From: a virus
Strand: one strand, 5' to 3'
IMG/VR virus record: IMGVR_UViG_3300025319_000005
Span: 127,289-191,288 of that record
Length of the DNA stretch: 64,000 nt
In this document: positions 45,647 through 58,110 of the stretch, piece by piece
Layout of the letters: each line of letters opens with the position of its first letter
Numbering within the stretch: position 1 is the stretch's first letter
The notes under the pieces: generated by a model
Database searches by the model: none
What the model was told of the DNA's origin: nothing
The model's input: the letters and a program-made list of their open reading frames with translations, nothing else
Translations under genes and position numbers: made by a program

Positions 45647-46333
45647 TTATATTAATTCATATCGTTTTGCCCACTTTCTCACCGCAACATCACTAACTCC
45701 AAATTTTCTACCAAGTGCACAATATGAATTATTTTCTATCATTTCTTTTAATTCTTCTTTAGAGGGTCTGTTTTTTACTTTTCTAAAATTTAATCTAGGT
45801 ACATATTTTCTCGTTGTTTTTTTATTTGTTTTATTTTTTTTTGCATTTTTTCTGTCTACGCCAATTTTACCACGGCAATGAGTTTCTAATGTGAAATTGC
45901 AGTTTGGACATAAAAATCTTAAGTTTTCTAATCTATTATCATTATTTATTCCGTTTTCGTGGTCAATAATTAAACTAATTTTTTTACCTCTCCATATTTC
46001 TCCTTGTCCACATTCTTTACATTCATATTCTATCATGTTATTATCTCGTATTCTTTTTTTTAAACAAGCCCTTGCAACAGAACTGTTTTCACAAAAAATT
46101 TCTTCATCACTTTTCCTTAATAATCTGTCTTCATTAAACATTTTTTTAGCAAAATCACTACGGTTTAAAAAATGAGAAGTATCTATTGACCATTTATTTA
46201 AATTTGTTTTAAGTATTTTATAAGATGAAGAAGAATCGCTTCTTCCAGATTTTACTATAACATCTCTAAATGTGATGCTTTCAGATACTAATTTTTGTAA
46301 TTCTTCTTTTGTATATTCTTTATGTTCTTTCAT
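45647..46333 (-). CDS. HNH homing endonuclease
   Basis: CKECG..DHENGINNDNRLENLRFLCPNC. Confidence 0.88.
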   Translation of the reverse strand: MKEHKEYTKEELQKLVSESITFRDVIVKSGRSDSSSSYKILKTNLNKWSIDTSHFLNRSDFAKKMFNEDRLLRKSDEEIFCENSSVARACLKKRIRDNNMIEYECKECGQGEIWRGKKISLIIDHENGINNDNRLENLRFLCPNCNFTLETHCRGKIGVDRKNAKKNKTNKKTTRKYVPRLNFRKVKNRPSKEELKEMIENNSYCALGRKFGVSDVAVRKWAKRYELI

Positions 46334-47785: not shown

Positions 47786-48733
47786 TTATTCTAATAATAA
47801 TTCATCAATTGTTAAAATTGAATTTAAATTATCTATTGTTTTTTTAAATATCATTTTAACATTAATGTTGTTTTGTTCTAATACTAAACTCATTTTTGTT
47901 TTATCTATTATTGAATAATATCCTTTAGTTTCTATGTATAAGTTAAAATTTGGCAAATAAAAATCTGGCACATACGTTTTTTCAACACCTTCTTTAATAT
48001 ATTGAATATATATTTTTCTAATCCACAATATTTTATTGTCATTTAACCATTGCGACATTTTTAATTCATATTTTCCTCTTAAAGAATATTCTTCACCAAT
48101 AATATTTTTTTGTTTATAAAATTTCACATGTTTAAAATTGTTACTTATTTCATTTTCTTCTAACATCTTGGAGTGAGATTTGCTAATTTTCGATTTTTGT
48201 TCAGAAGAAAGTGGCTTTCCTAATTGGTGATGTATTCTCTTACCAGTAGCATACATTTCTTTTTGTTGCTCAGATGCTTTATTTACCCTATTATCAGTTT
48301 CCTTTGTAAGTCCTCTTGACCATCCCATTTTTGATTTAGTCTCTGCATTACTGTATTTTTTATTTTTATATTCAACTCCATCCGGTGTATGCATTTGAAA
48401 TATATGACCACATATACCAAGTTTGTGAAATATTAATTCGCAATGAGGACATTTATATTTATCTACATCAACTTTCCAAGATTCATCTACTGTTATTTGT
48501 TTTTTATTAACTGTATTACATTTATTATAATGCCTTTCAAAATTAGAAACAGAAATATTTTTATTACATTTATCACAACATTTTGTGTTTTTAGGTTTTC
48601 CAAGTAAAGAAATACTTAAATTTTTTAATCTTTCTTTTAACTTTGGATTAGATTCACAATTTACTATATGAGCACCAAATTGTTGTGGGATCTCAAACTC
48701 AAAAGACTCTTTGCAATGCGGACAAGTTTTCAT
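47786..48733 (-). CDS. Homing endonuclease-like protein (Zn fingers, NUMOD3-like, PD-(D/E)XK)
   Basis: GWSRGLTKETD; YVPDFYLP..IETKG. Confidence 0.8.
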   Translation of the reverse strand: MKTCPHCKESFEFEIPQQFGAHIVNCESNPKLKERLKNLSISLLGKPKNTKCCDKCNKNISVSNFERHYNKCNTVNKKQITVDESWKVDVDKYKCPHCELIFHKLGICGHIFQMHTPDGVEYKNKKYSNAETKSKMGWSRGLTKETDNRVNKASEQQKEMYATGKRIHHQLGKPLSSEQKSKISKSHSKMLEENEISNNFKHVKFYKQKNIIGEEYSLRGKYELKMSQWLNDNKILWIRKIYIQYIKEGVEKTYVPDFYLPNFNLYIETKGYYSIIDKTKMSLVLEQNNINVKMIFKKTIDNLNSILTIDELLLE

Positions 48734-55144: not shown

Positions 55145-55171
55145 TTGAAATTATTATTTTTTAATATAAAG

Positions 55172-55244
55172 TGCTTCCAGTTGGACTTGAACCAACGACC
55201 CGAAAATTAAGAATTTCCTACTCTACCATCTGAGCTATGAAAGC
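55172..55244 (-). tRNA. tRNA-Lys(CTT)
   Basis: Cloverleaf with TT-CTT-AA. Confidence 0.9.
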
Positions 55245-55332
55245 AATAATTTATAATGTATTATAGATATATGTTGAGTAAAATCCACAGAATGTTCTAT
55301 TTTATGGATTGTGCTCAACAAATATGTAATTG

Positions 55333-55406
55333 TGTGTCCGACAAGATTTGAACTTGTGACCTCCGCATTAAAAGTGCGGTATTCTAACCAGCTGAATTAC
55401 GAACAC
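55333..55406 (-). tRNA. tRNA-Lys(TTT)
   Basis: Cloverleaf with CT-TTT-AA. Confidence 0.92.
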
Positions 55407-55410
55407 ATAG

Positions 55411-55497
55411 TGTACCCAGAAAGATTCGAACTTTCAACGGCCTTTCGGCTCCCCACAGGGTAAAAACCTGTTGCTCTACCAATTGAGCCATGGGTAC
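55411..55497 (-). tRNA. tRNA with TTT anticodon and long variable arm
   Basis: ACAGG-TTTTTAC-CCTGT; variable arm with GCC-GAAA-GGC hairpin. Confidence 0.85.
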
Positions 55498-55501
55498 AAA
55501 T

Positions 55502-55538
55502 AAAAAAGCCTGAATCTACACAGAGACTCAGGCTTTTT
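55502..55538 (-). terminator. Attenuator terminator upstream of the Lys tRNAs
   Basis: AAGCCTGAGTCT..AGATTCAGGCTTTTTT. Confidence 0.85.
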
Positions 55539-55553
55539 GGACTTATAAAAAAG

Positions 55554-55619
55554 TCAATGAGCTATCGTCCCCGGAGACCAGGGTTTCTTAGATTTTTTTA
55601 TTTTGATTATTGTTAACAT
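55554..55619 (-). CDS. Lys-rich leader peptide (21 aa)
   Basis: MLTIIKIKKSKKPWSPGTIAH*. Confidence 0.7.
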   Translation of the reverse strand: MLTIIKIKKSKKPWSPGTIAH

Positions 55620-56083: not shown

Positions 56084-56099
56084 TTTATTTATGTTTTTG

Positions 56100-56173
56100 G
56101 GTGCTATATCGGCTACGACCCGATTACCTTCTGTACCACAAACAGACACTCTACCAATTGAGCTAATAACACC
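56100..56173 (-). tRNA. tRNA-His(GTG)
   Basis: G-1:C73; TT-GTG-GT. Confidence 0.9.
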
Positions 56174-56186
56174 ATATTAAATTTGT

Positions 56187-56957
56187 TTAAAATACAAATT
56201 TTAAGACTTTAATATTATTTACTTTTTCACTATATCCAAAATTTCTAATTTCATCATGTATTTCTATGTGACAATTTGCACAAACCATAATACATTTATC
56301 AACTTCTACTTTTAATCTTTCAAAACCATAAGATTTGCCACCAATAGTAAAATCTTTTTCACTTGGATTTGTATGATGAAATTGTAAAACTGATGTTGAT
56401 TTATTATATCCACAACATTCACATTTCCATCCTTTATATTCAATTAATCTAATTTTACTTCTTTTTCTCCAATCTATAACAGCCTGACTTTTGGTTTTAG
56501 TTTTTTGTCTTTTTTTATTTGTTTTAATCAAATCATCAGAAATGTAATTTCTAATTGTTGTCCTATCTACCTTAAAATAAGCGGCTGTTTTTCTTAAAGA
56601 CTTACTTTCTATATAAAAATTAACAACTTCTATTTCAATAAGTTCTTTTTTCTTAAATGTACCACTTGATTTATTTAATCCATACAAATTACATATTTTA
56701 ATTAACTTATCTTCTCCAATGTCCAAAATTGACCTTATTTCGTCATAGCTTTTCAATTCTCTTCTGTAAGCAATTATTTTGTTTATAACTTCATCAGTTA
56801 TTCCAATTAAAAAACTGTTTCTTACTCCGCCAAGTCCAACATTATTTATGTGATAAGACACAGTGCTTTTTGAACACTTTAATTGTTCAACTATTTCTTT
56901 TATAGTTGAGCCTTTTTCTCTTAAAGAGATAATTTTATTTTTCAAACCTTTATCCAT
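56187..56957 (-). CDS. HNH homing endonuclease with HTH
   Basis: CECCGY..LQFHH..KCIMVCANCH; paralog of 12009-12704. Confidence 0.85.
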   Translation of the reverse strand: MDKGLKNKIISLREKGSTIKEIVEQLKCSKSTVSYHINNVGLGGVRNSFLIGITDEVINKIIAYRRELKSYDEIRSILDIGEDKLIKICNLYGLNKSSGTFKKKELIEIEVVNFYIESKSLRKTAAYFKVDRTTIRNYISDDLIKTNKKRQKTKTKSQAVIDWRKRSKIRLIEYKGWKCECCGYNKSTSVLQFHHTNPSEKDFTIGGKSYGFERLKVEVDKCIMVCANCHIEIHDEIRNFGYSEKVNNIKVLKFVF

Positions 56958-57028
56958 ATTATTAACTTTATTTGTTAATAAATATGGGATAAAATTCAAA
57001 AAAACAAAATTTATTTCAAAGAACGTTG

Positions 57029-57100
57029 CGGACCCGCCTGGACTTGAACCAGAAAACGCAGATTAACAATCTGAAGTGATACCAATTTCACCACAGGTCC
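57029..57100 (-). tRNA. tRNA-Asn(GTT)
   Basis: TT-GTT-AA; G discriminator. Confidence 0.85.
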
Positions 57101-57106
57101 CAATAT

Positions 57107-57427
57107 TTATTTTTTAATTTCTTCTTTAGTAATAGAATCACCAACCTCTATTACTTTGCCAAAAACTTTTTTTGTCCAACCATTTATTCCTCCTTTATTA
57201 TTTCCTATTAAACAACCTTTTTGTGCATTAATTGCTTTTACTAAATGTGTGTAGAAATTGCCGTGCACTTTCGCATAGACTATATCTCCTACTTTAACTT
57301 CATCTATTGTAATTGGGGCAATTTTATGTTCTTGTCCCGACTTAATTAAAGGAACCATTGAGTTTCCTTTTTCACTGGTGACGAAAGTCTCACCGTTTTG
57401 TAATCTTTCTAATTTATAATTTCTCAT
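57107..57427 (-). CDS. S24/S26 peptidase-like protein
   Basis: KGNSMVPLIKSG..VGDIV..HLV. Confidence 0.7.
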   Translation of the reverse strand: MRNYKLERLQNGETFVTSEKGNSMVPLIKSGQEHKIAPITIDEVKVGDIVYAKVHGNFYTHLVKAINAQKGCLIGNNKGGINGWTKKVFGKVIEVGDSITKEEIKK

Positions 57428-57443
57428 TTTTTATTATTTGTTT

Positions 57444-57532
57444 TGGCGGAAAACGGGCAAATCGAATACCATTCAAATTAACGAACCTCTCGCTTAGCAG
57501 GCGGAGACAACTCCCTGGTTGTTTCGTTTTCC
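57444..57532 (-). tRNA. tRNA-Ser(GCT)
   Basis: CT-GCT-AA, long variable arm, GCCA end. Confidence 0.85.
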
Positions 57533-57559
57533 ATTTATTATTTCAAAGAACATTTTTTG

Positions 57560-57645
57560 CAGAGGCTAAGAGAGTTCAACTCTTACAACCTTTTCAAGTC
57601 CTAGCTATTTTCAAGATAGTGTACCTCCGTCAACTGGGAGCCTCT
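57560..57645 (-). tRNA. tRNA-Ser(TGA)
   Basis: CT-TGA-AA, long variable arm, G73. Confidence 0.8.
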
Positions 57646-57724
57646 ATGTTTGCCTATTAACTCTATCACTCACCTAAACGGTGGATTACAGAACTTCGGC
57701 AGGATTTTATTCCTGTTCAGTTAG

Positions 57725-57801
57725 TGGAGATTGCCAGAATTGAACTGGCGTTAATTTCACGGTTCTTCAAACCGCAGCTAGACCGTCTCAGCTAAATCTC
57801 C
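57725..57801 (-). tRNA. tRNA-Phe(GAA)
   Basis: GGAGATT/AATCTCC; TT-GAA-GA. Confidence 0.88.
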
Positions 57802-57886: not shown

Positions 57887-57976
57887 TTACGATTCAAAAG
57901 GACAATACACACCCGCTCGGCTTTTATTACTAAAACTCGATTTGTTAAAATGCTTATGTGTATTATTTGTTGTCAT
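57887..57976 (-). CDS. Leader peptide of tRNA operon 2 (29 aa)
   Basis: MTTNNTHKHFNKSSFSNKSRAGVYCPFES*; contains antiterminator strand CGGGTGTGT. Confidence 0.8.
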   Translation of the reverse strand: MTTNNTHKHFNKSSFSNKSRAGVYCPFES

Positions 57977-57994: not shown

Positions 57995-58110
57995 TTTAAA
58001 TAGTATAAAAAATTATTTTTCTAAAAATTCTTATTATCAATTATAACGCAAAGATATAATTAAAGTTTCAAAAAAGCAAATTTATTTTGATTTATTTTTT
58101 ATTTCATTAA
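57995..58110 (-). promoter_or_regulatory. Promoter block of tRNA operon 2
   Basis: TATCTTTG at 58049-58056 and CTATTTA; duplicate of 49625-49740. Confidence 0.75.

Follow-up and report, generated by a model that had tools for sequence, protein, structure and literature searches.

Well-known attenuators of amino-acid operons include the trpL and hisL leaders, the multivalent thrL and ilvL leaders, and pheM, which lies before pheST; the operon of the NT-box of Clostridium acetobutylicum holds tRNA-Asn genes. The mechanism of attenuation has been described for pheL (PMC3082878, accessible passages), and the C. acetobutylicum NT-box has been described as a T-box riboswitch (PMC4574755, accessible passages).

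With regard to phages, codon demand, host RNA decay, and defence against nucleases are possible reasons why they carry tRNAs. According to the accessible portions of the respective reports, PrrC targets tRNA-Lys and a phage tRNA-Lys can rescue (PMC11555353), the T5 tRNA-Lys counters PARIS/AriB (PMC12409363) as well as PrrC, a T5-like tRNA-Tyr counters retron-Eco7 (PMC11555353), and Cas13a prefers the tRNAs for Lys, Glu, Gln, and Thr (PMC11042736). AriB cuts at U36AAUC|A41, and a change of U39 to A alone blocks it (PMC12409363, accessible portion). No description of attenuation of phage tRNA genes was found in the accessible full-text literature. The strings "attenuat-" and "leader" are absent from PMC11555353 and from a 2026 review (PMC13191261), and a survey of viral tRNA clusters that includes Cellulophaga phages (PMC6409571) contains neither of them, nor "terminator" or "promoter". 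Six phage non-coding RNAs were reported in the accessible part of an RNA-seq study of phage phi38:1 (PMC5335546), which may bear on terminated leaders.

The locus described here is a short leader with a run of Lys codons in front of three tRNA-Lys genes of a phage. Judged from its sequence and from folding models, it is very probably a ribosome-dependent transcription attenuator of the trp type, which would gate these three genes inside a larger attenuated unit.

The Phage and Its Host

The window, i.e., the whole stretch of DNA that was analysed (64,000 nucleotides), belongs to a virus record of 212,632 bases, which is linear and has 29% GC; Lys makes up 11.6% of residues and Gln 3%. A complete relative (G001) comprises 518,809 bases with terminal repeats. 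The best 80 genome matches of a nadD-like gene located 2.5 kb from the cassette are almost all from Bacteroidota (taxon as titled), and two tRNA blocks begin at a promoter of the form TTG-N20-TAnnTTTG, which we take to be the Bacteroidota-type consensus. These matches and promoters suggest that the host is a member of Bacteroidota. The sequencing runs containing the leader stretch are labelled as soil, sediment, or groundwater, none of those listed is an RNA run, and no leader variants were found in four DNA sequencing runs, whose cover is fragmentary.

The Lys Leader and the tRNA-Lys Genes

The cassette comprises the following elements:

55554..55619, minus strand: Lys leader ORF, with ATG at 55619 and 21 codons plus TGA ending at 55554
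55584..55604, minus strand: control codons 6-12 (K I K K S K K), of which codons 9-12 are the predicted sensing window
55569..55583, minus strand: segment 1:2 GC hairpin over codons 13-17, a predicted protector or pause hairpin (from folds)
55567..55573, minus strand: segment 2, the 5' strand of the predicted antiterminator helix (from the fold)
55540..55555, minus strand: small 5-bp hairpin that spans the stop codon and the spacer and can exist in either state
55521..55527, minus strand: segment 3, the predicted antiterminator partner, comprising the loop and the adjoining end of the terminator 5' arm (from the fold)
about 55502..55538, minus strand: intrinsic terminator with a 15-bp stem and a U run, ending 4 nt ahead of the first tRNA
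55410..55497, minus strand: tRNA-Lys(UUU), 88 nt, with a long variable arm, a G31-C39 pair, and C38 (ARAGORN; Rfam 64 bits)
55332..55406, minus strand: tRNA-Lys(UUU), 75 nt (ARAGORN; Rfam 71 bits)
55171..55244, minus strand: tRNA-Lys(CUU), 74 nt (ARAGORN; Rfam 62 bits)

The leader peptide, MLTIIKIKKSKKPWSPGTIAH, is encoded by 21 codons, and codons 6-12 contain five Lys (four AAA and one AAG), just as a first-pass annotation of this DNA had reported (five Lys in seven codons, both AAA and AAG). The GC hairpin that this annotation placed after the leader is present, but it lies inside the ORF right behind the Lys run and not past the stop; a hairpin occupies this place in all four versions of the leader, in a shifted register. 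The strong terminator claimed directly before the tRNA-Lys genes was recovered as a stem of 15 pairs followed by a U run, and its hairpin amounts to -19.0 kcal/mol. The fold of the whole leader has a z score of -4.9 against 200 shuffles. The stop codon and the stem are 18 nt apart; of 12 ordinary terminators, 11 likewise stand more than 12 nt behind the stop. A long spacing of this kind is expected if ribosomes trail the polymerase.

It had also been cautioned that Lys-rich ORFs arise easily in A-rich DNA. A run of five Lys in seven codons was detected in just 4 of the 1141 short ATG ORFs (15-35 aa) of the contig, the Lys leader among them, and none was seen in the other short ORFs found ahead of the 37 terminator-like hairpins. 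Such runs are thus not a common product of the A-rich background. The start context of the leader ranks higher than the starts of 97% of 135 long ORFs and than 99.8% of 7458 ATGs, with a scoring matrix that favours A-rich DNA. Together with the whole-codon indels in relatives, this start context would speak for translation of the leader. A sigma-70 promoter scan returned 69 sites vs. 68.6 expected and hence gave no information. The region upstream of the leader (55735-55615) was considered as a tRNA remnant and rejected, with a fold z score of -0.2 against shuffles and no alignment to the tRNA-Thr of relatives.

All three genes proposed behind the terminator, i.e., Lys(TTT) with a long arm, Lys(TTT), and Lys(CTT), were identified by both ARAGORN and Rfam, and their anticodon stems indeed all differ. 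Together, they cover both Lys codons and would relieve the shortage sensed. A BLAST search of the cassette against cultured phages gave tRNA-level matches alone, none covering the leader, and an exact search of viral contigs for the long-arm tRNA-Lys gave 0 matches. Long variable arms on normally short-armed tRNAs were observed on the Lys gene at 55497-55410, at L001 11877-11963, and at L044 3794, 4004, and 5330, and, in relatives, the tRNAs concerned include tRNA-Asn and tRNA-His. In addition, two unrelated long-arm Lys bodies take turns at the first position of the cassette.

Conservation in Relatives

One relative (L001) was found through a neighbouring protein with 73% identity, and scans with peptide patterns gave true matches in 2 of 22 viral and 8 of 10 metagenome cases (G001 again being one of the eight), the other 20 and 2, respectively, being chance matches. 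The metagenome pattern contained no Lys codons; therefore, the Lys runs found there were not built in by the search. Nine other contigs (L001, G001, and seven metagenome contigs) carry three further versions of the Lys leader. Across the four versions, the leader has 21, 22, 23, and 23 codons, and the differences are of whole codons. A lack of conservation of the Lys codons, which the first-pass annotation had said would refute its reading, was not seen; in the three further versions, four or five Lys stand directly before Pro-Trp, and the frame, the stop position, and the terminator are kept. Within the last 17 leader codons, 8 of 16 variable columns are third positions. Every version has at least one AAG, which accounts for 6 of 19 Lys codons vs. 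14% genome-wide.

With regard to the downstream part, 12 stem pairs of the terminator are invariant in all four versions, and the spacing from leader to tRNA is 15-20 nt longer in L001 and L026 with the same hairpin. Four or five tRNA-Lys genes follow the leader in eight of the nine contigs, those that reach far enough, and every cassette seen opens with a tRNA that has a long variable arm and closes with one Lys(CTT), which reads AAG. Two wider pattern scans found no Lys-only leader in other lineages, and this leader is known from one clade; the wider Lys-run and Gln-run patterns returned G001, two chance matches, and no more.

Predicted Antiterminator

When only the 5' arm and loop of the terminator have been transcribed, segment 2 (55573-55567) is predicted to pair with 55527-55521, and this pairing, extended by inner helices, reaches -16.9 kcal/mol. 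In folds with ribosome masking, the gain from pairing amounts to -3.9 kcal/mol as long as the A site is on codons 1-8 and hairpin 1:2 is free to form. It is largest, at -10 to -11 kcal/mol, for an A site on codons 10-12, is -6 kcal/mol on Pro13, and is 0 from Gly17. At footprint offsets of 6, 8, 10, and 13 nt, the peak coincides with the last Lys codons or is at most one codon away from them in all four versions; shifting the footprint from 6 to 13 nt moves it by about two codons, still within the Lys run. An antiterminator exclusive of the terminator is predicted in each of the four versions. The antiterminator pairing, which had earlier been judged less clear here than in the other two leaders, is thus clearer than assumed: a predicted helix blocks the 5' arm of the terminator best when the ribosome is on the last Lys codons and disappears shortly afterwards.

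Among the 37 terminator-like hairpins of the contig, whose median antiterminator gain is -4.0, the three tRNA-operon terminators rank 2, 3, and 4 (the Lys terminator being rank 3); the hairpin at rank 1 lies antisense to a repeat of a coding gene. Synonymous recoding reached the observed gain in 22 of 1000 trials for the window leader, in 1 of 1000 for the Gln leader of G001, and in 107, 125, and 159 of 1000 for the three relatives, where this control is weak. For covariation of the antiterminator, 93% of 60 cells pair, with one double change, a value that 63 of 500 shuffles also reach and that is not significant; the terminator shows no variation among versions. In equilibrium folding, the full transcript adopts the terminator at every ribosome position, and the switch would therefore need kinetic control.

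The Outer Unit

Upstream of the Lys leader, the following elements were found:

58049..58080, minus strand: Bacteroidota-type promoter heading the whole unit, TTG, 20 nt, TAnnTTTG (pattern match)
57887..57976, minus strand: outer leader, 29 codons, rich in Phe/Ser/Asn/His, with three Lys codons
57826..57858, minus strand: outer terminator
56099..57801, minus strand: outer block with tRNA-Phe, Ser(TGA)-like, Ser(GCT), Asn, and His, and two inserted ORFs
57644-57558, minus strand: tRNA Ser(TGA)-like (by likeness to G001)
57532-57444, minus strand: tRNA-Ser(GCT)

A near-identical copy of this promoter precedes a third leader, at about 49689. The outer leader thus holds three Lys codons and its block no tRNA-Lys; in L001, the outer leader has two Lys codons alone, at the edges of its window. 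The 2.2 kb from the outer terminator (57858) to the Lys leader contain neither a terminator nor an exact promoter; two promoter sites with one mismatch occur in this interval, more than 1 kb away and below the background of 2.6 per kb. G001, L028, and L029 likewise have no terminator or exact promoter between the outer terminator and the Lys leader, and L001 has two exact promoter-like matches within an antisense ORF, about 3.7-3.9 kb upstream. Since no terminator or exact promoter separates the two attenuators, the nesting noted in the first-pass annotation is supported. A weak private promoter for the Lys leader is still conceivable, because the promoter regex misses the real outer promoters of L001, G001, and L028.

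The window is without the tRNA-Thr(GGT) of its relatives, and its outer leader has AGT where theirs have ACT (one event). Several further observations concern this region. At L028 2381-2455, a tRNA-Thr(GGT) body carries a GAT anticodon, which is either a natural switch or an assembly error. An extra ORF between tRNA-His and tRNA-Thr, absent from the window, occurs in relatives (L001 13415-14074; L017 1375-2008) and looks, judged by eye, like a short histidyl-tRNA synthetase-type domain. A small S24-peptidase-like ORF (57107-57427, minus strand; below the Pfam cut-off) between the Ser and Asn genes is kept in the window, L001, and G001. In addition, HTH/HNH-type and phage-endonuclease ORFs are inserted between tRNA genes (56187-56999, 47786-48733, and 45647-46333, minus strand) and are likely mobile homing endonucleases.

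Leaders in Front of Other tRNA Blocks

A third unit of the window begins with two elements:

49601-49473, minus strand: third leader, 42 codons
49433-49409, minus strand: terminator of the third leader

The tRNAs behind it are Gly, Met, Val, Met, Trp, Tyr, Gly, Pro, Ile, Asp, Ala, Thr, and Cys; the leader contains all 11 amino acids of this block and is conserved in L001 and G001. In the same array, a degenerate RNase P class A-like RNA (46744-46483, minus strand; 39 bits, E 2e-9, gathering score 100) sits between tRNA-Thr and tRNA-Cys, and a further tRNA at 45645-45567 (minus strand) is an Rfam-only match of 34.6 bits.

A parallel to the Lys cassette is present in G001 (L045 5435-5884), where a nested leader with seven Gln codons is followed by four tRNA-Gln genes with different anticodon stems. 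The outer leader of G001 is built from Leu/Arg/Glu/Ile and two Gln codons, and its codons CTA, TTA, CTT, AGA, GAA, ATA, and ACG match the anticodons behind it; the partner of ACG, a Thr(CGT) gene, was missed by ARAGORN. In LR745206 (L187 10902-12700), the genes for His, Phe, Trp, and four Lys come immediately after a homologous-looking outer leader to which Trp is added, and a nested Ser/Arg leader lies behind this block. LR756504 (L188 10068-13400), a huge phage like LR745206, also carries attenuated tRNA units, as well as three tRNA-Lys that immediately follow a promoter-like site, without an attenuator in between.

Similar units were detected in unrelated and in cultured phages. An unrelated phage (G002), found by a scan for the terminator pattern in which 6 of 10 matches were without tRNA, has three leaders matched to their tRNA blocks. 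Six further G002-like loci include four with units, one with 19 tRNAs and no unit, and one without a tRNA block. A leader, a terminator, and cognate tRNAs were found in five of eight cultured Bacteroidota phages (phi4:1, phi17:2, phi38:1, Calle_1, and phi10:1), the cultured Cellulophaga phages being L137, L184-L186, and L189; the other three (crAss001, immuto 2-6A, and pT24) are without such units, and no attenuated tRNA unit was found in L149 and L190. One phi4:1 leader seems to start at GTG. Tenacibaculum phage pT24 (L141 1410-2480) shows unusual tRNA calls with the anticodons CTA, TAT, and CGG behind a promoter-like site, and a leader at L148 274-391 (IMGVR_UViG_3300012346_000598) lists nearly all amino acids about once before 20+ tRNA genes.

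Among permutations, the true pairing of leaders with operons ranks first of 6 in the window, of 120 in G001, of 6 in G002, and of 6 in phi4:1. A further comparison used 21 leaders, which are not independent; where a terminator had more than one ORF ahead of it, the leader was picked by eye. In all 21, cognate codons are more frequent among the ten leading up to the structure-defined edge (182/210) than among those past it (65/214). Left out of this test were L001, L028, L029, L144, phi17:2, and Calle_1 (near-duplicates), as well as L145, L146, L148, and one LR756504 leader. With a fixed window over the first 65%, a test in which single-residue sets cannot reach below p 0.05, the Leu/Glu leader of G001 and the Pro/Arg/Cys leader of G002 were not enriched (p 0.27 and 0.67).

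On the host side, the tRNA-Lys pattern matched in 53 of 61 Bacteroidota genomes, and none of the 30 host tRNA-Lys loci examined (one without upstream DNA) has a terminator with a Lys-run leader. A K/R-rich ORF before tRNA-Lys in 12 of these 30 loci was ruled out as a leader, there being no terminator; presumably, it encodes a small conserved ribosome-associated protein, which it resembles.

Proposed Mechanism and Alternatives

The proposed sequence of events is as follows. Host RNA polymerase would start near 58050, pass the outer attenuator, and reach the Lys leader. With ample charged and intact tRNA-Lys, the ribosome would run to the stop and cover segment 2, and the terminator would form. 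When tRNA-Lys is short, the ribosome would wait on Lys codons 9-12 and cover segment 1. Segment 2 would then be available for pairing with the terminator 5' arm near the loop, and transcription would enter the tRNA genes. Newly made tRNA-Lys would then shut the switch, which amounts to negative feedback.

The same fold would result from any pause on codons 9-13, the Lys run is A-rich, and Pro13 falls within the sensing window at short offsets; the leader might accordingly respond to general translation speed (ribosome shortage, host shut-off, or slow poly-A/poly-Lys decoding) and not to tRNA-Lys itself. We consider this improbable, since CAA/CAG are the codons of the parallel nested leader in front of tRNA-Gln, and the leaders of unrelated phages follow the content of their own tRNA blocks. 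It is very improbable that the hairpin terminates constitutively and with some leakage, or is bypassed through a phage antitermination protein or a private promoter, the Lys-rich frame being an inherited side effect of A-rich DNA. The base composition (29% GC, with Lys at 11.6% of residues), the terminator winning at equilibrium, and the weak covariation among just four related versions would agree with such a terminator, but the scarcity of the Lys run (4/1141 short ORFs), indels that keep the frame, the rank of the antiterminator among 37 hairpins, the Gln parallel, and the 21/21 edge test all speak against it.

A role mainly in RNA processing or stability, as a signal for cutting or protection ahead of the first tRNA, modulated by the ribosome, could be imagined from the U run ending 4 nt from the tRNA 5' end, from a stem long enough for a double-strand RNase, and from the degenerate RNase P-like RNA in the adjoining array. 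A stem followed by a U run is the pattern of an intrinsic terminator, the same hairpin stands 15-20 nt farther from the tRNA in L001 and L026, and other units lie 40-150 nt ahead of their first tRNA, which makes this role extremely improbable. Attenuation dependent on a ribosome that stalls at Lys codons remains the preferred reading.

Possible Purpose of the Switch

If the Lys leader is an attenuator, its useful trigger would be a lack of tRNA-Lys molecules, caused by cleavage or demand, because more tRNA cannot cure a lack of lysine. That it serves to replace tRNA-Lys destroyed by host nucleases, with varied tRNA bodies as a hedge, has about an even chance of being correct overall and is somewhat favoured once attenuation is granted, in which case supply control for a Lys-heavy late proteome would take the remaining share. 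PrrC or PARIS are examples of possible host nucleases, not findings.

Contigs with identical leaders have differing anticodon arms on the same tRNA body, and C or A at position 39 was found in 11 of 19 phage Lys(UUU) genes vs. 0 of 66 host matches, for which the pattern favours canonical tRNAs. All three tRNA-Lys of the cassette depart from the AriB site U36AAUC|A41: the first is without UAAU, the third has UAAUU|U, and the second reads UAAUG|C, as does the Thr(CGU) of E. coli, which is barely cut. Demand does not explain the nested Gln cassette, because Gln is just 3% of residues.

On a wider scale, it is an evenly balanced proposition that Bacteroidota phages run a codon-resolved immune sensor, in which each tRNA array is divided into attenuated blocks, every leader naming the codons that its block serves, and the tRNAs that host nucleases cleave most often (Lys and Gln) sit behind an additional, nested single-codon gate, which releases fast-evolving variants only when that tRNA is destroyed. 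If true, leader sequences would be a genome-readable record of the tRNAs attacked by hosts, and such leaders could act as live reporters for new tRNA-cutting defences. A conditional, codon-specific switch speaks against a constitutive compensation of codon bias. It would also show which shortage the phage meets during infection, and why phages carry tRNAs becomes testable in this way. The Cellulophaga phages phi4:1, phi17:2, phi38:1, Calle_1, and phi10:1 offer a cultured test system for the same design.

Comparison with Known Systems

A ribosomal protein L10 leader was rejected as an assignment (27.7 bits vs. a gathering score of 44, E 0.44), with tRNA genes and no rplJ downstream. The lysine riboswitch (L-box aptamer), which we take to be RF00168, shares lysine-linked control of termination with the phage leader but differs in its large aptamer that binds free lysine, and its Rfam model has no match in 44-60 kb of the window. 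T-box riboswitches are similar in that a leader RNA reads tRNA status and switches a terminator, and they are a possible precedent for feedback at the level of tRNA; unlike the phage Lys leader, they need no ribosome or ORF. No T-box Rfam match was found to E=1 in 44-60 kb of the window or at the gathering score in three related loci.

Nuclease-countering tRNAs of the T5 type resemble those of the cassette in that a phage tRNA-Lys is altered around positions 38-41. The papers on them deal with resistance or a strong promoter, whereas conditional expression is proposed for the Lys cassette, in which three to five different bodies are stacked.

The closest counterparts are the trp-type attenuators (trpL, hisL, and pheL), with which the phage Lys leader shares a short ORF, tandem control codons, 1:2/2:3/3:4 helices, an intrinsic terminator, and, as predicted, stall-dependent antitermination. 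While these attenuators control enzymes in cells, the phage leader would control tRNA genes, with no biosynthetic or synthetase genes, and its useful signal would be missing tRNA bodies and not the amino acid. It also differs in lying within another attenuated unit and in having lysine as its sole control residue. Attenuation would thereby be extended from enzymes to tRNA genes and given a two-level logic.
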